DNA of 64,000 nt from an uncultured bacterium (GTDB lineage Bacteria; Actinomycetota; Acidimicrobiia; Spongiisociales; UBA5794). The position numbers and the translations under genes were made by a program. The notes beneath the pieces are model-generated. The model worked only from the letters and a program-made list of their open reading frames with translations. It was not told the DNA's origin and made no database searches. The stretch spans positions 64,001 through 128,000 of the forward strand of contig CAWDDT010000006.1 in NCBI GenBank assembly GCA_963801165.1, written 5' to 3'. Numbering within the stretch: the stretch's first letter is position 1; every line of letters begins with the position of its first letter. Below, piece by piece: positions 15,246-23,221 of this stretch.

Positions 15246-16283
15246 TCATCGACCGAGGAGACGGTGATAGAGCGACACATAGTCGTCGACCATCCTGGCT
15301 ACATCGAAACGTCCCTCAATCGAGCGACGCACGCCCTCGCGGCTGAGATGCCGAGCCTCCCCGATCGCATCGACGGTCGCTCCTCTGGTGGAGACGAGGA
15401 ACCCGTTGACTCCGGGTTGGATTATCTCCGGCATCGACCCTCGCCGGTGAGCGATTACCGGCGTGCCACATGCCATTGCTTCGACGACGCTGAACCCGAA
15501 GGGCTCATCGAAGTCGATCAAATGAAGCAGCGCCGCTGCAGTGCCCAGGACTGCCTGGCGTTGCTCCGGCCCAACCGACCCCAGGTAGATGACGCGGTCG
15601 CCATCGATATGGGGCCGGACGAAGGTTTCGAAGTACTCCTGGTCCTGAATGATGCCCGCGATGACAAGGGGGCGTCCCGCCGCGGCAGCAACCTCGATGG
15701 CGGCAGCCGTTCCCTTGTCGGGATGGATCCGACCGAAGAAGACGAGGGCGTCCCCGCCCGGGCCTACGTCAAATGAGTCGATGTCGATTCCGTGGTGGAT
15801 CGTCGCGGCATACTCCAGAGCCGGGTGCCGATCGGCGTCGCTGATTGCCACGTAGTTGACACGATCGGAGTAGGCGAGGTACGCGGGCAGGGTGGCGTCT
15901 GAGGCAAACCCGTGGATCGTAGTCACGACGGGTGTGTTGACCAGCCTGGTGAAGGCGAGGGGAAGGAAGTCGAAGCTGTTGTGGATCAGATCGAACTCGT
16001 CTGCCCGCTCGAACAAGCCGGCAATGTGAAGCGCCTCCCATGTCTTGGCGTCGAGGGACGGATCTTCCGCGTACCCGGTGGGAGCCACGCCCACAAGTTT
16101 CGCTGCAGTCACCGAATCGGCGGTAGCGAAGAGCGTCGTGTCGACGCCCCGAGCCACGAGGCCTTCGGTCAGCAGTGAGGCGAACTGCTCCCACGGGCCG
16201 TAGTGGCGCGGCGGAACCCTCCATGCAATGGGAGCGAGAACTGCCACGCGTAGCGGCGCGGCCGTACGGTGGGCGGAGAGCAC
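15246..16283 (-). CDS. Glycosyltransferase family 4
   Basis: PPRHYGPWE, FGRIHPDKG, EPFGFSVVEAMACGTPV. Confidence 0.92.
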   Translation of the reverse strand: MLSAHRTAAPLRVAVLAPIAWRVPPRHYGPWEQFASLLTEGLVARGVDTTLFATADSVTAAKLVGVAPTGYAEDPSLDAKTWEALHIAGLFERADEFDLIHNSFDFLPLAFTRLVNTPVVTTIHGFASDATLPAYLAYSDRVNYVAISDADRHPALEYAATIHHGIDIDSFDVGPGGDALVFFGRIHPDKGTAAAIEVAAAAGRPLVIAGIIQDQEYFETFVRPHIDGDRVIYLGSVGPEQRQAVLGTAAALLHLIDFDEPFGFSVVEAMACGTPVIAHRRGSMPEIIQPGVNGFLVSTRGATVDAIGEARHLSREGVRRSIEGRFDVARMVDDYVSLYHRLLGR

Positions 16284-16397
16284 GGTATTACCTCGATCTC
16301 ATCGGAGGGCCGGTGAGATGAACAATTGGTCCGGGCATCGACCCTGCAGCTGCGGCATTCGGTCGTTCATGGAGAGCCCAGGGTTGTCGGCGTCGGC

Positions 16398-16520
16398 TCA
16401 ATCGATCTTGGACGACTTGGCGGCGGCGTCCCGCTTGCCCTTCTTGGCGAGGCGCTTTTCCTTCAGGTTCTTGGTGGCGAGCTTCTTGGTGTCTTTACTG
16501 CCTTTGTCCTTGGTTCCCAT
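16398..16520 (-). CDS. Small lysine-rich protein (40 aa)
   Basis: MGTKDKGSKDTKKLATKNLKEKRLAKKGKRDAAAKSSKID; GGAGG 5 nt before ATG; AAG codon use. Confidence 0.75.
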   Translation of the reverse strand: MGTKDKGSKDTKKLATKNLKEKRLAKKGKRDAAAKSSKID

Positions 16521-16639
16521 GAGTGCCTCCAGGCCGGCCGCCGGAGCGGCGGCCGATCCCATCGTGGCAGGCTCAAATCCGACGACGAGATCGTCGAGCA
16601 AACGAGGTGAGCCTGCCGTGTCGTTGGGCGAGAAATCAA

Positions 16640-16876
16640 TCAGCCGTCGGTGTCTGGGATGCCGAGCTCGAGGAAGATGCGCTGGCGTTCCCTCTTGTAC
16701 GCCAACTCCGGGACCCTGCCCGCAGCGTGCCCCTCGCTGAGAACACGAAACTCGTCCATGAGCCGAGCCTCAACGGCGTTGTCGATCACCTCGGTTTCGG
16801 AAGCGATGGTCTCTCGTCGCAACCGTTTTGCCTCCTGGCGCTGTACGCGCCGGCGCTCTCGTTCCCGTTTACCCAT
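16640..16876 (-). CDS. Small hypothetical protein (78 aa) with Arg-rich N-terminus
   Basis: MGKRERERRRVQRQEAKRLRR...FLELGIPDTDG; co-oriented downstream of the RRM gene; start uncertain. Confidence 0.55.
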   Translation of the reverse strand: MGKRERERRRVQRQEAKRLRRETIASETEVIDNAVEARLMDEFRVLSEGHAAGRVPELAYKRERQRIFLELGIPDTDG

Positions 16877-16958
16877 CCCCTCACGCCCGCGCGACATCAG
16901 CAGCACCAATCGGCAGTGGGTCGCATCGACCGGCGCGCGGTCCGCTTGGCGAGCATCA

Positions 16959-17213
16959 TCATCGACGAGGGGCGCGGGGCTTGGCCTCATTGACCGTGAT
17001 CTGCCGTCCGTTCCACTCGCGGCCATTCAACTTCTCGATGGCCTGCGCAGCCAGAGCGCTATCGGCGAGCTCAACAAAGCCGAACCCCCGGGATCTGCCC
17101 GTGTCGCGGTCGGTGATGACGGATGCCGAATCGACGGTGCCGAAATCCGCAAAAAGGCCACGGAGGTCGCCCTCGGCAGTGTCAAAGGGAAGATTCCCTA
17201 CATAGAGTTTCAT
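16959..17213 (-). CDS. RRM (RNP-1) RNA-binding protein, copy 1
   Basis: RNP2 LYVGNL and RNP1 RGFGFVEL; AGGAGAGG SD. Confidence 0.95.
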   Translation of the reverse strand: MKLYVGNLPFDTAEGDLRGLFADFGTVDSASVITDRDTGRSRGFGFVELADSALAAQAIEKLNGREWNGRQITVNEAKPRAPRR

Positions 17214-17265
17214 GGTTGATACCTCTCCTGGTGTGGGAAACGCGTTCGATCCCCGGTATAGATGA

Positions 17266-17348
17266 CTCGGATACCGACTCTGCCGCAGTCCAGTCCGAAG
17301 AAGGAGAGAAGTGAGCCGCCGCCGAAGCAGCTTCGCCCACCATACCAG
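17266..17348 (-). promoter_or_regulatory. Extended -10 promoter and conserved structured 5' leader of RRM copy 1
   Basis: TGGTATGGT, GCTGC-TTCG-GCGGC, CACTTCTCTCCT, second hairpin; aligns with 20825-20907. Confidence 0.8.
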
Positions 17349-17494
17349 CAGCTGTGCCGGAACATGGCGAGCTCTCCACTGCAACGGCCGGAGTTCTGCT
17401 CCTGGTTTGCGCCATTTCGCCGTCGGGAAGTTGGGTCGCTCAGTGTCGAACCGCGCTCGGGGTGACGAAGTTGACGGGGCAGGACGGGAAGTTG

Positions 17495-18592
17495 TCAGAC
17501 GCCGATCGGTTCGAGGCCGAGCCATCCGGCTAGGTCGGCGATCTCCGCCTGCACCGCCGCTGTGATCGCCTTGGTGAAGCGCACGTCCTGGTGAACGGCG
17601 TACACCTCGAGCGTCCCGCTCTTGCGGTCCGCCCTGGCATCCAGCTTTCCGATCAGCCGATCGCCGTGGAGGATCGGCAGGGCGTAGTAGCCCCAGCGAC
17701 GATCTTGCTTCGGCTTGTACATTTCGAGCACGTACTCGTAGTCGAACAACTCCTGAACGCGGGCCCTGTCGTGTACGAGCCGGTCGAACGGCGACAGCAA
17801 GGCGGTTCGCCCTTCGAATGGTTCGTTTCTCGTCCGCCCCAGCGTCTCGGGATCGACCCGCCATTCGCCCTTCGCGTTTTCGACCACAGCAGGTTCACCA
17901 ACTTCACCGACGTCCCACGGCTCGACAGGCACTTGCGTCGTCCGGCTGCGGGCGATACCGAGCGCCCGCAGCCGACGCTCGTTGCGCATGCGGCGAGCAT
18001 CCGGCTCGGGGACAGGCGACACGTCGGATGGATAGACTCGCTCGGCGAGATCCCATATCCGTTGGCGACTTTGCCGACCCGTGATGGCAACCTCGCCGCG
18101 CATCATCAGGAACTCCAACATTTGAGTTACGTTGCGGTCGTTCGTCCATCCGCTAGACCCCCACTGCTCTTGCGAAGTGTCGGGGATGTCGCGCGACATG
18201 AGGGGTCCCGAGCTCTCGAGCCGTTCCAGGATGTCGCGCCGGAATCGGTCGTTGGCCTCGAGCCACCGGCGTGCCCTCTCCGTGGTGGGCCATGTCGCCA
18301 TGGCGGTTAGGTAGAGCCCGAGGTCACTCATGGGCCGCACGAGAGCGTTGAATTCGAAGAGGGTTCGGTCGCGTTCGAGCGCCGCCCGCAGGCCGTCGGG
18401 GTCGTACGACTGTCCCAGCCTGCTCCACGCTACGAGGTCGGCGTTGGGTGCGATCGCCGCTGTCGGGTCGATTTGGAGGAGGGTGAGGTGCTCGACCACC
18501 TCGACGAGGGCGTACGGTCGCCGAGCATCGAGGAGCTGGGCGCGGACCGCGAGTCTCCTGGCTTCCTGTCGGGTGAGTTCGTGAGGAGTCAT
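17495..18592 (-). CDS. YcaQ/AlkZ-family winged-helix DNA crosslink repair glycosylase-like protein
   Basis: LQIDP, WDLAERV, LLSPFDRL, LEMYKP..RRWGYYALPIL. Confidence 0.88.
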   Translation of the reverse strand: MTPHELTRQEARRLAVRAQLLDARRPYALVEVVEHLTLLQIDPTAAIAPNADLVAWSRLGQSYDPDGLRAALERDRTLFEFNALVRPMSDLGLYLTAMATWPTTERARRWLEANDRFRRDILERLESSGPLMSRDIPDTSQEQWGSSGWTNDRNVTQMLEFLMMRGEVAITGRQSRQRIWDLAERVYPSDVSPVPEPDARRMRNERRLRALGIARSRTTQVPVEPWDVGEVGEPAVVENAKGEWRVDPETLGRTRNEPFEGRTALLSPFDRLVHDRARVQELFDYEYVLEMYKPKQDRRWGYYALPILHGDRLIGKLDARADRKSGTLEVYAVHQDVRFTKAITAAVQAEIADLAGWLGLEPIGV

Positions 18593-18787
18593 CGGCCGGG
18601 AGCCTAATGGCATGGTCGCGCCGAGCCGGTGGGTTCGACCTTAGATCGTCGTCGGCCCGGGCCTGCGCGATGACGTCGGCAGCGGCGGCACGACTTGCGG
18701 GACGGAGCAAGCCGTGTGTCCCTCAAATAGCGACTTCGACGGCGGTTCGTACTCGCCGCGGTGACGAGGACGGCACTGTGATGGCCG

Positions 18788-19642
18788 TCAGGCTGTCGGC
18801 ATGCCTTTGATCTCGGGGAGGATTCGTTCGGCCACGATCTCGGCGACCCTTACCGGTGCATCGCACGGTGGTATGTAGACGATGTTCTCAGTAAAGCCGG
18901 CGTTCATGTACCCGTGAAGCAGGTCGACCATGGCAGAGGGTTCCATATCGTTGAAGCGCGGCTGGACGGAGCGCTTGATCTCCGTTGGGTCGCGGCCGAT
19001 CGCGGCACAGTGTTGATCGAGGATTGCGGCCTTTCGGGAGACATCCTCAACCGAGCCGACAATATTCCACACATCGGCATGCTCGGCGACGACGCGTAGC
19101 GTGAGCTTCTCACCTCCGCCGCCGATCCAGATGGGTGGGTGCGGCTTCTGGAGCGGCTTTGGATTCGAAACCGCGTCGGTGAGCTTGTAGTACCGACCCT
19201 CGTAGGACGCCTGTTCCTCAGTCCACAGCTTCCGGCACACCGTCAGGGCCTCGCCGAGCCTGCGGACGCGCTCGCCCGCCGAGTAGAACGGTATGCCGAG
19301 CATCCTGTGTTCGATCTCCGCACCACCCGCCCCGAGCCCGAACTCGAGCCGCCCTCCCGAGAGGTGATCGATCGTAGTGGCAATCTTGGCGAGTAGCGCG
19401 GGGTGGCGGTAGCCGTTACCGGCAACCATCAGCCCGATACGCACGCGTGTCGTCGCCTCTGCCATCGCCGCCAGGAGGCTCATGCCCTCGAACATGTCTC
19501 CGGTGACGTCGGCGAAGATCGGGTTGAGGTGGTCAAAGCCCCAGAGATGATCGAAGCCGGCTTCGTCCGCAATGCGCCAAACGGCATGCAGATCGGCTAT
19601 CGAACAGTTCTGCGGCGAGAGCTTGAGACCGAGCGTGACCAC
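18788..19642 (-). CDS. LLM-class (probably F420-dependent) oxidoreductase
   Basis: WGFDH, YRHPALLAK, GGRLEFGLGAG, PPIWIGGGGEK. Confidence 0.9.
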   Translation of the reverse strand: MVTLGLKLSPQNCSIADLHAVWRIADEAGFDHLWGFDHLNPIFADVTGDMFEGMSLLAAMAEATTRVRIGLMVAGNGYRHPALLAKIATTIDHLSGGRLEFGLGAGGAEIEHRMLGIPFYSAGERVRRLGEALTVCRKLWTEEQASYEGRYYKLTDAVSNPKPLQKPHPPIWIGGGGEKLTLRVVAEHADVWNIVGSVEDVSRKAAILDQHCAAIGRDPTEIKRSVQPRFNDMEPSAMVDLLHGYMNAGFTENIVYIPPCDAPVRVAEIVAERILPEIKGMPTA

Positions 19643-19776
19643 CCGACGAGGCTACCAGCGCCGGCCAGACAGTGGTGGTCGCACGATGCGCTCACGGTCT
19701 GAGACGTGGTGGGTGGTGGTCGACACCGGGTGTAGGGTCTGTGCCGTCGGAGCCATCGAGCAGGCGGGCGGGGACG

Positions 19777-20412
19777 GTGATCGTGGGCGATCGTTCAGGG
19801 TCTGATCTGAGAGTGCTCCATGTGCTGCGATGCATCGGTGTGGCCGGAGCGGAGAGGTTGGCAACGGCAGCGGGGCTCGACCTGAGCGACACCGACAGGA
19901 TGCTGAGGGAGCTCTCGGACCGGGGTCTCGTCGAATCCGATCCCGGGCCTTTTGGTGGTTGGAGCCTCACCGACAACGGCCGCACGGTCGAGCAGGAGAT
20001 GCTCGATGGAGAGCTAGAGCGTGCCCGGGCGCGAGATGATGTGCTTGCGTGCTACGAGTCGTTCATGGGTCTGAATCCGAGACTGCTCGAGATCTGCAGT
20101 GCATGGCAGATGTGGCGGGTCGGTGACACTTATATCCCCAACGATCATGGCGACCCGGACTACGACTGTCGGGTGCTTTCCCGGCTCGTTACGGTCGATG
20201 GGGGAGCGCAGCGGATCTGCGCCGACCTGGCCCGACGCTTGGCGCGCTTCGGTGTCTACGGGGACCGTCTTGCGTTTGCCCTCGAGCGGGTGAAGGGCGG
20301 CGATCACAACTACGTCGCAGACAACATGGATTCATATCACACGACCTGGTTTCAGCTCCACGAAGACCTGCTCACGACACTCGGAATCCCGCGTGACGGC
20401 CGGCCGGCCTGA
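19777..20412 (+). CDS. MarR-like winged-helix protein of the actinobacterial SYH.W.LHEDL family
   Basis: N-terminal wHTH; C-terminal DSYHTTWFQLHEDLL; start uncertain. Confidence 0.7.
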   Translation: MIVGDRSGSDLRVLHVLRCIGVAGAERLATAAGLDLSDTDRMLRELSDRGLVESDPGPFGGWSLTDNGRTVEQEMLDGELERARARDDVLACYESFMGLNPRLLEICSAWQMWRVGDTYIPNDHGDPDYDCRVLSRLVTVDGGAQRICADLARRLARFGVYGDRLAFALERVKGGDHNYVADNMDSYHTTWFQLHEDLLTTLGIPRDGRPA

Positions 20413-20521
20413 GGGGTGCAGGAACTGGGTGTGGTCGACCCGACCTCGGGTCAGGCGCGGCCCGGTTCGGCTGACTAGTCGCAGCTGCCGGGCGAGATCG
20501 GCCGCCCAATGAGCGGAAGTG

Positions 20522-20773
20522 CTACCGCCGTGGCGCGCGTGGCCTGGCTTCGTTGACCGAGAGCCGCCGGCCATCCACCTCATGACCGTTGAGCTCCTCG
20601 ATGGCTCGTGCGGCCTTCGTCGAGTCGGTGATCTCGACGAACCCGAAGCCACGGGATCTGCCGGTCTCACGATCGGATATGACCGATGCCGACTCGAGGT
20701 CGTAGCCGGAGAAGAGGTCGCGAAGATCGCTCTCTCGAAAGCTGAAAGGGAGATTGCCCACGTAGATGTTCAT
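20522..20773 (-). CDS. RRM (RNP-1) RNA-binding protein, copy 2
   Basis: IYVGNL, RSRGFGFVEI, VNEARPRAPRR. Confidence 0.95.
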   Translation of the reverse strand: MNIYVGNLPFSFRESDLRDLFSGYDLESASVISDRETGRSRGFGFVEITDSTKAARAIEELNGHEVDGRRLSVNEARPRAPRR

Positions 20774-20824
20774 AGTTGTCCTTGTTCTGGCGGAGACGCC
20801 TTCGCGTGAACGGTTGAATTGGTG

Positions 20825-20907
20825 CTCGGATCCGACTCCGCCTCAGTCCAGACCGAGGGTAGGAGAGAAGTGCGTCGCCGCCCTAGCAGCGGAAGGGACC
20901 ATACCAG
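20825..20907 (-). promoter_or_regulatory. Extended -10 promoter and conserved structured 5' leader of RRM copy 2
   Basis: TGGTATGGT, GCTGC-TAGG-GCGGC, CACTTCTCTCCT, CTCGGTCTGGACT...AGTCGGATCCGAG. Confidence 0.8.
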
Positions 20908-20973
20908 GACGGGAAGGGTTTGTCCGCCGACATGACCGTCTTGGCCGTCCCCGGGGCGATTTCGCCGACGAGA

Positions 20974-21552
20974 TCACCCGGGAGCTCGCTCGTTGCGCTG
21001 GGCCGCGGCAGCGATCTTGTCGATGCGAGCGGCCCTTGTCTCCGGGCGCCTGGCCAGAGCCACCCACGCCAGCATCTGCTTTCGCGCCGAGGGGGGGAAC
21101 GCCGCGAAGTTCTCGGCGGACGGCGCGCGGAGCGCAAACGCGGCGTCGAGGTCGTCGGGCACCTCGAGCCGCTCGGCCGAATCGAGGATCTCCCAGTATC
21201 CGTTCTCCTTTGCTGCCTCGACTGCGGCGATGCCCGCGGGCATCATCCGACCTTGGGCCGTAAGCCGGGCAACGCGAGCCTTGTTCGTCGCTGCCCACGG
21301 GCTGCGCGCTTTGCGGGGAGCGAAGTAGAGCTTGCCGCGGTCCTCGTCGAATCTGCCCGCGGTGCTGTCAACCCATCCGAAACAGGTTGCCTCTTCTATG
21401 GCCTCCTCATAGGAGAGGCCGGGATGACCGGCACCGGCTCGCCACGTGACGAGCCAGCAGCCTGTGGCGTCGGCGTGGTGGTTGTCCAGCCATGCTCGCC
21501 ACGTAGCACGATCGTCGGCGTGAACGTAGGGGGCATCGTCAAGTGCGGACAT
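20974..21552 (-). CDS. YdeI/OmpD-associated family protein
   Basis: WRAWL..HH, EEATCFGWVDS, SPWAATNK, VPDDL, ARRPETRAARI. Confidence 0.9.
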   Translation of the reverse strand: MSALDDAPYVHADDRATWRAWLDNHHADATGCWLVTWRAGAGHPGLSYEEAIEEATCFGWVDSTAGRFDEDRGKLYFAPRKARSPWAATNKARVARLTAQGRMMPAGIAAVEAAKENGYWEILDSAERLEVPDDLDAAFALRAPSAENFAAFPPSARKQMLAWVALARRPETRAARIDKIAAAAQRNERAPG

Positions 21553-21559
21553 GTTCCGA

Positions 21560-23221
21560 TTATCGCGGCGGATGCGATGGGTTGTCAGCGCGTGGCCCAT
21601 CCGCGCGAGGGAGTGTGAGGCTGAACACGCTCCATCCATCGCGACGCTCGTAGCGGAGCTCTCCGTCCATCAGCTGTGCCAGCTTCCTCGCTACGGTGAG
21701 ACCAAGCCCGATCGAGGCTGGATTCCCTGTCGCGGCTTCGGATCTCTGGTAGGCGTCGAAGATGCGTGATTCGTCGCCGCTGGGAACACCGTCGCCGTTG
21801 TCCCGAACCTCGATGCAAACATAATCGTCGACGTAGCCGTAGAACAGTTCTATTCGTCCGCCCCCGTGCCGGCGGGCATTCACGACGAGATTTCGCAGGA
21901 TCTGCCGCGACCGGGAGTCGTCACACCAGGCTAGGACCGGCTCGTCTGGTGCGGCGACCTCGATGGCGAGATCCGAAGCCAGCGGCTGTAGCACTGAGGT
22001 GACCTGGGTGCCGATATCGACGGTCGTGCCCACGACGACGAGGTTGTCGAGGTCGGCACGGGCAGCAACCAATAGATCCTCGACGATGGCGACCACCTCG
22101 CCGGCCTGTTGCGCGAGCAGGGTGTGCAACTCGGCGATCTCATTTGCGCTCAGGTCGGCACTGTTGCCGCGCAGCTCTTCGCTGAGCCCGTAAACGACGC
22201 TGAGCGGGGTCCGCAGCTCGTGCGACACCGAAGCAACGAACTCGTCCTTCGAGCGGATCTGTTCTTCGAGTTGGCGGCGGTACCGGGCCGCGGCGGTGAC
22301 ATCGATGGCAACCCCCACCGTGCCGCGCCGGACGCCGAAGCCGTCGATTTGCGGCCGGTGGCGCACCGCAAAAGACACATCACCGAGCGTTATCTCGTGG
22401 ACGCTGTCCGTCGGGGACGACAGGGCCGCTCTGACCATGTCGAGCACCTCGGGGCTGCCGGCATAGACATCGGCAACGTTGAGCCCGACCACCTGTCCGG
22501 GTTCGAGGCCGAGGAGACGCAGGCCGGGGCCCTCGGACAGCGTGAATACGCCGTCATTATCGATCGCATAGAGCACGATCGGCGTGCTGTCGACAACGGT
22601 GTGGAGGCGCGATTCCTTCTCCCTCAGGTCGGCGTTCAGCCTCTCCCGCTCGTGTACCGCTGTCGCTGCCGTTGTCGTCATCAGGAAAGTCGCTCCCAGA
22701 TACACAACCACGGCGATGGCGACGACCACCTCTTGCCGACTCTGGCTCAGGGCGGCGCCGGTGACCGGGAGATCGAATGAGAGGACAGCAAGGCTCCACA
22801 GAGCCGCGTAGCCCACAACGGAAATCGACCAGCGTCGAGATAGGGCGAACACAGCCGAGACGAGGTCGTAGAACAGCGGTGCAACAATGATCACATGGGG
22901 CAGGTTGGTGAGCAAGACGGCTGCGCCCGTGACGGTGACATCGAGGAGCAGGGCTCCCAGCACCTGGTGTCCAGCACCCGGACGGAGACGGCGCAAGCCG
23001 TCGAGAAGGGCTAGGAACGCGGCGCCGGCAACGACCCACCCCCCCGGCCAGGTCCACAACGCGCCGAGAAACACCCCGCACACAACCAGCGCGGCGGCGG
23101 CCACCATCCGGGACCGCAGGTATCCGGTAGCCATGTCGAACTGGCCGAGGCTCTCCGATCCGAGAGCAGTCGGTACCGGGTGCGATGGCGCGTATGCGGA
23201 TGTATGAGTACGCTCGGTCAT
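21560..23221 (-). CDS. Membrane PAS-domain sensor histidine kinase (no adjacent regulator)
   Basis: TM region, PAS, SHELRTPL, NLVVNA, DNGDG, GLGL. Confidence 0.92.
   Translation of the reverse strand: MTERTHTSAYAPSHPVPTALGSESLGQFDMATGYLRSRMVAAAALVVCGVFLGALWTWPGGWVVAGAAFLALLDGLRRLRPGAGHQVLGALLLDVTVTGAAVLLTNLPHVIIVAPLFYDLVSAVFALSRRWSISVVGYAALWSLAVLSFDLPVTGAALSQSRQEVVVAIAVVVYLGATFLMTTTAATAVHERERLNADLREKESRLHTVVDSTPIVLYAIDNDGVFTLSEGPGLRLLGLEPGQVVGLNVADVYAGSPEVLDMVRAALSSPTDSVHEITLGDVSFAVRHRPQIDGFGVRRGTVGVAIDVTAAARYRRQLEEQIRSKDEFVASVSHELRTPLSVVYGLSEELRGNSADLSANEIAELHTLLAQQAGEVVAIVEDLLVAARADLDNLVVVGTTVDIGTQVTSVLQPLASDLAIEVAAPDEPVLAWCDDSRSRQILRNLVVNARRHGGGRIELFYGYVDDYVCIEVRDNGDGVPSGDESRIFDAYQRSEAATGNPASIGLGLTVARKLAQLMDGELRYERRDGWSVFSLTLPRADGPRADNPSHPPR

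Follow-up and report, generated by a model that had tools for sequence, protein, structure and literature searches.

A structured 5' leader of RRM protein genes in one order of Acidimicrobiia, a candidate translational operator

Two genes for small single-RRM (RNA recognition motif) proteins, rbp1 and rbp2, lie on the minus strand of a 64,000-nt stretch of DNA from an uncultured acidimicrobiial bacterium (GenBank assembly GCA_963801165.1, contig CAWDDT010000006.1, positions 64,001 to 128,000; hereafter the window), and each is preceded by a copy of a structured 5' leader of about 120 nt. Judged from sequence comparison, the leader is a distinct RNA family that, in the genomes sampled, is limited to a single order of the Acidimicrobiia, and it is probably undescribed, with no match among catalogued families. 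The leader is conserved, is associated with RRM genes, has a defined fold and pairs with the Shine-Dalgarno (SD) sequence of the gene that follows. It is read here, with even confidence, as a translational operator that would act through SD sequestration, its input most likely being the RRM proteins themselves in a feedback loop.

Two copies of one leader

The leader of rbp1 (L1; 17214-17332, minus strand) is the canonical copy and occupies positions 1-119 of the model, the last three of which are the ATG. It scores 97.1 bits with a covariance model built from 20 sequences (R1) and 94.5 bits with a second one built from 42 sequences and comprising 33 pairs (R2), both made without coding sequence. 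The leader of rbp2 (L2; 20774-20891, minus strand) is a diverged copy, with 69.8 (R1) and 66.5 (R2) bits. The original prediction, made from the window alone, had placed L1 at 17348->17266 and L2 at 20907->20825, and the letters given for both, CTGGTATGGT...CCGAG on the minus strand in the case of L1, match the window exactly. From the first G of the 5' hairpin to the base before the ATG, the leaders measure 118 nt (17331-17214) and 117 nt (20890-20774), as predicted.

Alignment of the two upstream regions with MAFFT returns a single aligned block, running from the -10 box through CCGAG, which together with inspection of L2 confirms that the -10 box, the stems and the CU tract are shared. The predicted cause, selection rather than recent copying, is also borne out. 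Identity between the rbp1 and rbp2 leaders is 66/84 in the core, 33/56 in the 3' part and 46/97 upstream of the -10 box, and the coding DNA of the two genes is 68% identical, falling to 45% at third codon positions (19/55 at identical residues). Synonymous sites are thus saturated whereas the core retains 66/84 positions, so the duplication is old and the core has been held by selection; on this sequence evidence, the similarity is beyond chance and beyond recent copying.

Structure of the leader

L1 opens with P1, the 5'-terminal hairpin GCUGC-UUCG-GCGGC (17318-17331, minus strand, as are all parts of L1), in which 99% of cells are paired across 66 distinct aligned rows. Next, preceded by a conserved GACUCAC, is the CU tract CACUUCUCUCCU (17302-17313), the anti-SD, which is followed by P2, a long bulged hairpin (UUCGGACUGGACU-loop-AGUCGGUAUCCGAG; 17266-17299) with three single-base bulges and a nearly invariant sequence, whose helices are 83-85% paired and in which 11/14 pairs have changed on both sides. 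After P2 comes the conserved linker AACAACU, and beyond it P3 (17235-17254), a hairpin of variable sequence and conserved pairing: 7/8 pairs have changed on both sides and whole pairs are swapped between rows (for example A-U in 31 and G-C in 24, or G-C in 33 and A-U in 13).

The SD of rbp1, AGGAGAGG (17222-17229), lies ~90 nt downstream of the CU tract, by which it is predicted to be sequestered. The two form 8 pairs at -12.0 kcal/mol in the duplex calculation, and the same helix stands in the minimum free energy (MFE) fold of L1, which contains P1, the CU:SD helix, P2 and P3. The RNAalifold consensus of 20 sequences is a nested three-way junction in which the CU:SD helix closes P2 and P3, with P1 at the 5' end. 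Complementarity between the CU tract of L1 and its own SD had been part of the original prediction and holds family-wide with covariation; P3 and the closure of the junction by the CU:SD helix go beyond that prediction.

Three further features of the leader were considered. A fourth hairpin, P4 (GGCG-AUU-CGCC, formed by the 3' part of the SD and the bases before the AUG), is visible in many sequences; it is noted as a lead and was left out of the pair counts. A pseudoknot between the P2 loop and the region before the SD, judged by eye only, was unconvincing. A leader peptide was rejected on two grounds: the one open reading frame (ORF) that covers the leader (17210-17365) already begins ahead of the inferred promoter, and copies differ by indels whose lengths are not multiples of three.

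L2 keeps P1 (20877-20890, with the loop UAGG), the CU tract (20861-20872) and P2 (about 20825-20857), the last with one compensatory A-U to U-A flip, and its SD is AAGGA at 20779-20783. P3 is degraded (duplex -5.9 kcal/mol), as is the CU:SD helix (about -4 to -7 kcal/mol; -4.4 in the own-versus-cross test described below), and the MFE fold is unlike that of L1. The proposal of a leader common to both RRM genes therefore stands for P1, the CU tract and P2, while P3 and the CU:SD pairing have been lost in L2; this loss of the 3' half had not been foreseen.

Support for the fold

Across 66 distinct rows, 86.8% of cells in paired columns are paired, against 40-51% when partners are slid, and the covariation score of 0.335 compares with about 0.1 in controls. 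Pairs that have changed on both sides number 24/33. None of 500 shuffles reached the observed value on any of five measures, and a 42-row alignment gave similar results. Changes in P1 are limited to G-C becoming G.U (13 rows) and U.G becoming U-A or C-G; they keep pairing on the sense strand only, which argues for an RNA and not a DNA palindrome. The alternative that there is no RNA element at all, and that a DNA operator or palindrome, a terminator of the upstream gene or a mobile repeat has been mistaken for one, is therefore barely credible. It would account for P1 and P2 being inverted repeats and for P1 abutting the promoter, but not for the retention of G.U and U.G pairs that read as A-C mismatches on the other strand (13 in P1, many in P2 and P3), nor for a long-range SD pairing that covaries. 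Furthermore, the start codon stands at a constant 113-124 nt whereas the upstream gene lies at varying distances, no terminator-like site was found in the scan reported below, and the 1-4 copies per genome are always gene-linked.

Pairing was also examined free of any alignment, by comparing the duplex energy of each strand with its own partner and with partners swapped between leaders. For P3 the own value is -12.2 kcal/mol and the swapped value -8.1 (0/2000 permutations). For CU:SD the values are -10.35 and -9.66 (21/2000), or -11.48 and -10.82 over 53 distinct combinations (60/5000). Sub-clades carry differing but matching CU and SD partners, namely CUUCCCUU with AAGGGAAG, UUCCCGUC with GACGGGAA, CUCCCUCU with AGAGGGAG, CACUCUCU with AGAGAGUG and UUCUUUCU with AGAAAGAG. 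When leaders were folded one by one as partition functions at 30 C, the SD window paired mainly with the CU region in 39/56 of them, and SD accessibility is 0.28-0.30, compared with 0.41-0.43 when the upstream sequence is shuffled. A conserved, covarying anti-SD:SD helix, the mark of an SD-sequestering operator, is thus present family-wide and in L1, and is missing from L2.

A four-segment switch (CU tract with the 5' arm of P3, and 3' arm of P3 with the SD) was considered, and some clades do show matching CUCCUC/GAGGAG versus CUUCUC/GAGAAG. No own-versus-cross advantage was seen for either pairing (579/2000 and 1428/2000), and the switch was dropped on that account.

The original prediction had also offered a thermosensor, in which the fold would change with temperature and no protein would be involved, whether cold-inducible through a kinetic or alternative fold, as in cspA, or heat-inducible through melting of the SD helix. 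Cyanobacteria and Bacteroides regulate RRM proteins in response to cold, a leader length of 117-124 nt and SD sequestration would both fit, and the available text of the Bacteroides study (PMC13370968) raises the same idea for the rbp 5' UTRs described there. Over 48 leaders, however, the mean unpaired probability of the SD window moves only from 0.27 at 5 C to 0.33 at 55 C, which disfavours a thermometer of the melting type and lends the thermosensor no support; these figures come from equilibrium folding, and kinetic or co-transcriptional switches, a cspA-like cold switch included, lie outside their reach. The helices are GC-rich, the invariant sequence of P1 and P2 would be needless in a simple thermometer, and the two-state alternative pairings are those that showed no own-versus-cross advantage. 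A thermosensor is thus considered unlikely.

Distribution across genomes

The genome tallies that follow are samples, and the element is to be taken as not found in the genomes searched rather than absent from a lineage. Two unpublished genomes (G027 and G038) are counted in the blastn and RRM-gene tallies, and at least G027 in the R1 tally; neither has a leader match. With L1 as query against 40 related genomes, blastn gave significant matches in G035, G015 (two), G014 and G005 (two), with E from 1.6e-19 to 3.9e-9, and partial matches in G018 and G020, and all of these stand before RRM genes. An exact pattern (P1 and the start of the CU tract) matched 18 times in a set of genomes that represents 185,579 species by one genome apiece. 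Fourteen of the 18 lie 113-124 nt before an RRM ORF of 83-85 aa, while the remaining 4, in other phyla, are unrelated and due to chance; the records of the 14 are labelled Acidimicrobiia or Acidimicrobiaceae in 13 cases and 'uncultured bacterium' in one. One metagenome-assembled genome (MAG) holds four copies of the exact pattern, and in metagenome contigs 9/16 matches precede an RRM ORF.

The covariance modelling that the original prediction had proposed extends this conservation. R1 matches occur in 22/151 genomes sampled from the order and R2 matches in 32/133 genomes of the family, 3/15 within the window's own genus (the window's genome included). No R2 match was found in 150 other genomes sampled from the phylum. 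Two R1 matches in the class outside the order (G194, 28 bits; G191, 25 bits) have no RRM gene after them and were taken as chance. Copies per genome range from 1 to 4, with up to 4 in G143 and 3 each in G155, G048 and G015.

Over all fetched loci, R2 gave 70 matches, 66 of them distinct. An intact RRM ORF follows immediately in 58/66, with its start 3-16 nt inside the model end; included in the 58 are one with ATC in place of the start codon (L038) and one frameshifted (L062:2637-2758). The 8 without an intact RRM gene include three weak matches (L081, L142 and L143).

Inferred promoter and start site

An extended -10 box, TGG-TATGGT, is predicted from conservation across leaders at 17339-17347 for rbp1 and at 20898-20906 for rbp2 (both minus strand). 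In 60/63 distinct leaders a TANNNT has its last base 5-7 nt ahead of model position 1, and 36 of those 60 also carry TGN immediately before it. Going by the position of the box, transcription would start at about 17332/17331 (rbp1) and 20891/20890 (rbp2). A scan of 16300-21100 for consensus sigma-70 promoters and for terminators returned no promoter-like and no terminator-like site; the consensus scan is blank at the leaders because there is no -35 box, and the -10 box rests on conservation instead.

The position of P1 at the inferred 5' end raises the alternative of a constitutive stability or expression module, in which P1 protects the mRNA from 5'-end-dependent RNases, the remainder tunes translation to a fixed level and nothing is sensed. 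5'-terminal stem-loops of the ompA type stabilise bacterial mRNAs, and in 60/63 leaders P1, a C(UUCG)G hairpin, lies at most 1-2 nt away from the inferred start. Such a module fails, however, to explain the near-exclusive link with RRM genes (58/66) and the conserved, SD-sequestering three-way junction. Nor is P1 a general 5' module in the window's genome, which has one exact copy of it, and 13 copies with one mismatch compared with 62 for the reversed control. The module is accordingly regarded as quite improbable.

Proposed mechanism

In the favoured reading, the leader as a translational operator under RRM-protein feedback, transcription would start 5-7 nt past the extended -10 box, so that the RNA would begin with the very stable UUCG hairpin P1, which may shield the mRNA 5' end. 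Hairpins at the 5' terminus stabilise mRNA against 5'-end-dependent RNases. The CU tract just behind P1 would pair with the SD ~90 nt downstream, and this long-range helix would close the three-way junction that holds P2 and P3; the closed form would hinder ribosome binding, and in this way the leader would act as an operator. RRM proteins are proposed to bind the invariant elements (P1, the bulges and loop of P2, and the AACAAC linker) and so to set their own synthesis and that of their paralogs by auto- and cross-feedback, with temperature as a possible second input. The sequence of P1, P2 and the linker stays invariant even as that of P3 drifts, which suggests sequence-specific recognition. 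RRM proteins are favoured as the input because of these invariant parts, because the leader is common to several paralogs per genome and by analogy with the feedback reported in Bacteroides. The protein input, the start site and the stabilising role of P1 are inferred.

Several observations weigh against this reading. The rbp2 leader has neither the SD pairing nor P3, so copies need not all sequester the SD. The pair counts come from alignments (42 and 66 rows) fitted to the covariance model, which favours the model, and the alignment-free energy comparison was added for that reason; in that comparison CU:SD, at about 1% of permutations, is more weakly supported than P3, and register shifts in repetitive CU/GA sequence can mimic CU:SD covariation. 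RRM genes were found in 123/151 genomes of the order, and most of these genes lack the leader, which therefore marks a subset of RRM paralogs, patchy and often multi-copy. Five matches of at least 45 bits lack an intact RRM gene (two before genes similar to nitronate monooxygenase (NMO), one before a methyltransferase-like gene, one relic and one before a decayed RRM gene). Finally, the 16 sequencing runs that hold the locus are all DNA contigs, with no RNA run among them, and transcription itself is inferred.

Copies in front of other genes

Copies of the leader before genes other than RRM genes, which the original prediction had not anticipated, are few. At L135:482-600 (-) and L084:1255-1372 (-), the leader precedes an NMO-like gene; the two partial sequences score 24.7 and 20.2 bits with Pfam PF03060, below the cut-off. 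At L071:1501-1621 (-), the RRM gene behind the leader has decayed and starts with ATC, and an NMO-like gene comes next. In G048, where one of the 3 leader matches precedes an NMO-like gene, that gene and an RRM gene stand back to back and both have a leader copy of their own. These arrangements suggest a functional link or co-regulation.

In G015, a leader copy of 56-68 bits with an altered P1 (L010:2518-2640, minus strand) precedes an ORF named methyltransferase-like from a GCGTG motif alone. This copy lies ~950 nt upstream of a canonical leader and RRM gene, and the ORF seems to be served by a separate SD and to start at a TTG 26 nt past the ATG of the leader. A relic of 55 bits at L133:420-542 (+), which has neither SD nor ORF, probably marks a deleted RRM gene in G314; it is followed by a long perfect hairpin and, on the other strand, a tRNA-like sequence.

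More broadly, the leader could be the shared operator of a small post-transcriptional regulon, in which Rbp paralogs would recognise P1 and the bulged P2 across mRNAs, those of the NMO-like and methyltransferase-like genes included, and would stabilise or open the anti-SD:SD helix, giving a cross-regulated network of RNA-binding proteins. This extension is tentative and, on balance, doubtful.

The same copies before enzymes (NMO-like twice, methyltransferase-like once) are what a riboswitch would lead one to expect, with a small molecule bound at the P2/P3 junction and the CU:SD helix as the expression platform, and the three-way junction, the invariant bulge and linker nucleotides and the SD-sequestering helix would suit one as well. 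The regulated genes, however, are overwhelmingly those of RNA-binding proteins rather than transporters or biosynthetic enzymes, the range is one order in the genomes searched and no Rfam riboswitch matches at E up to 10, which makes a riboswitch very improbable.

Relation to known leaders

A cmscan of 16000-22000, on both strands, with all 4227 families of Rfam 15 and E up to 10, a check proposed with the original prediction, gave no leader match, in keeping with its statement that no named RNA family was recognised. The sole matches in that interval, to sR32 and Methylosinus-1, are weak, unrelated and away from the leaders. A literature search found no description of the leader, although its coverage lacks most subscription journals and absence is thereby unproven.

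The closest known object is the Chlorobi-RRM RNA motif (RF01697; Weinberg et al. 2010, PMC2864571), which the accessible part of that paper presents as a structured RNA upstream of RRM protein genes. Like the leader, it is lineage-restricted, structured, presumably cis-regulatory and located before RRM genes, and it was found by comparative genomics, its input being without experimental proof. The leader differs in its lineage (Actinomycetota rather than Chlorobi) and in giving no match to the model of that motif at E up to 10. The Chlorobi motif reportedly consists of two hairpins and a terminator, implying transcriptional control, whereas the leader has no terminator and sequesters the SD.

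The rbpA, rbpB and rbpC genes of Bacteroides thetaiotaomicron have 5' UTRs of 122-155 nt, and RbpA, RbpB and RbpC exert redundant feedback, one component of which is post-transcriptional and 5'-UTR-dependent, going by the text of PMC13370968 that is available. The likeness lies in long leaders (117-124 nt here), small RRM-1 proteins and several paralogs per genome. The phyla are unrelated, however, and the comparison is one of descriptions, as the available text gives no structure or motif for the Bacteroides UTRs, while the evidence is experimental there and computed here.

The E. coli cspA 5' UTR is likewise a long structured leader of a small nucleic-acid-binding stress protein, and has SD access control and protein autoregulation of its own. 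In contrast to cspA, the leader has no match to the Rfam cspA family (E up to 10) and no identified cold-box-like element, its SD access hardly moves with temperature in equilibrium folding (0.27-0.33, 5-55 C), and its proteins have the RRM and not the cold-shock domain fold. The cyanobacterial rbpA1 5'-UTR is reportedly, by the title of a 2005 study (Ehira 2005), involved in transcript accumulation at low temperature; the anatomy of the leader points instead to translation initiation, the comparison being one of roles, with sequences left uncompared. Zipper-type thermometers (ROSE, fourU), in which the SD lies in a short, weak hairpin melting at roughly 30 to 42 C, also gave no Rfam match, and here the SD partner is ~90 nt away in a GC-rich three-way junction for which no melting is predicted.

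The principle of regulation is not itself new, and it is the RNA family that would be. Small single-RRM proteins are widespread in bacteria and little studied outside the cyanobacteria and, recently, Bacteroides. To our knowledge, small RRM regulators in Actinomycetota have not been studied. The leader is a compact RNA whose fold is backed by covariation. Its proposed mechanism, in which an anti-SD:SD helix closes a three-way junction behind a 5' tetraloop hairpin, is clear and testable, and natural variants exist in the rbp2 copy that lacks SD pairing and in the copies on other genes. It offers a handle on whether bacterial RRM proteins autoregulate like cold-shock proteins, and its model could enter RNA family databases and improve the annotation of Acidimicrobiia MAGs. 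How Rbp synthesis is controlled is described as an open question in the available part of the Bacteroides report (PMC13370968).

The RRM genes and their surroundings

rbp1 (16959-17213, stop included, minus strand) encodes 84 aa and rbp2 (20522-20773, stop included, minus strand) 83 aa, and their products match Pfam RRM_1 (E 7.4e-23 and 3e-21) and score 114.1 and 107.5 bits with NCBIfam NF058537 (Rbp_regulator), whose curated cut-off of 100 bits both exceed. Rbp1 and Rbp2 share 65% amino-acid identity. The same-strand genes upstream of the leaders, AlkZ-like (17495-18613) and YdeI/OmdA-like (20974-21639), are unrelated.

A third small RRM gene of the window's genome (L004:1380-1830, minus strand, which is G000:C13 about 175380-175800) has an apparent frameshift in the RNP1 region, with GRSHADSGSS replacing GRSRGFGFV, and a leader of a different type, in which a 5' hairpin GCACGC-ACAA-GGCGUGC is followed by AACGCC and a CU tract. 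Leaders of this type, termed class B, also stand before RRM genes of the MATNIYVGNLSF type in further genomes of the order (L096, L097, L099, L103, L104 and L110). More broadly, other RRM leaders of the order (L096, L097, L101, L103, L105, L106, L108 and L112) carry, 55-160 nt upstream, a stretch of pyrimidines with complementarity to the SD of the same gene, for example CGCUUCUUCUG with CAGAAGGAGC (10 pairs) at an RRM gene that lacks the leader described here. An anti-SD design may therefore be general for the RRM genes of the order, to judge by sequence, and these other leaders, with their 5' hairpin and SD-complementary CU tract, may be diverged versions of one ancestral design; a shuffled-SD control on the anti-SD tracts gave z between -1.9 and +0.8 and hence no statistical support. 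A DEAD-box-helicase-like protein of the window's genome also ends in an RRM domain (G000:C10:31966-32172, which is L003:1450-1750, plus strand).

Downstream of rbp1, a 67-aa ORF (16398-16601, minus strand) with a lysine-rich tail (...KDKGSKDTKKLATKNLKEKRLAKKGKRDAAAKSSKID) has no Pfam match; just before its internal ATG at 16518 is a P1-like hairpin, CGCCGC-UCCG-GCGGC, which at 12.7 bits is at chance level. Between the two rbp loci, and convergent on rbp2, a 246-aa ORF (19672-20412, plus strand) has weak winged-helix matches (HTH_IclR, 25 bits), and no connection with the leader was seen.

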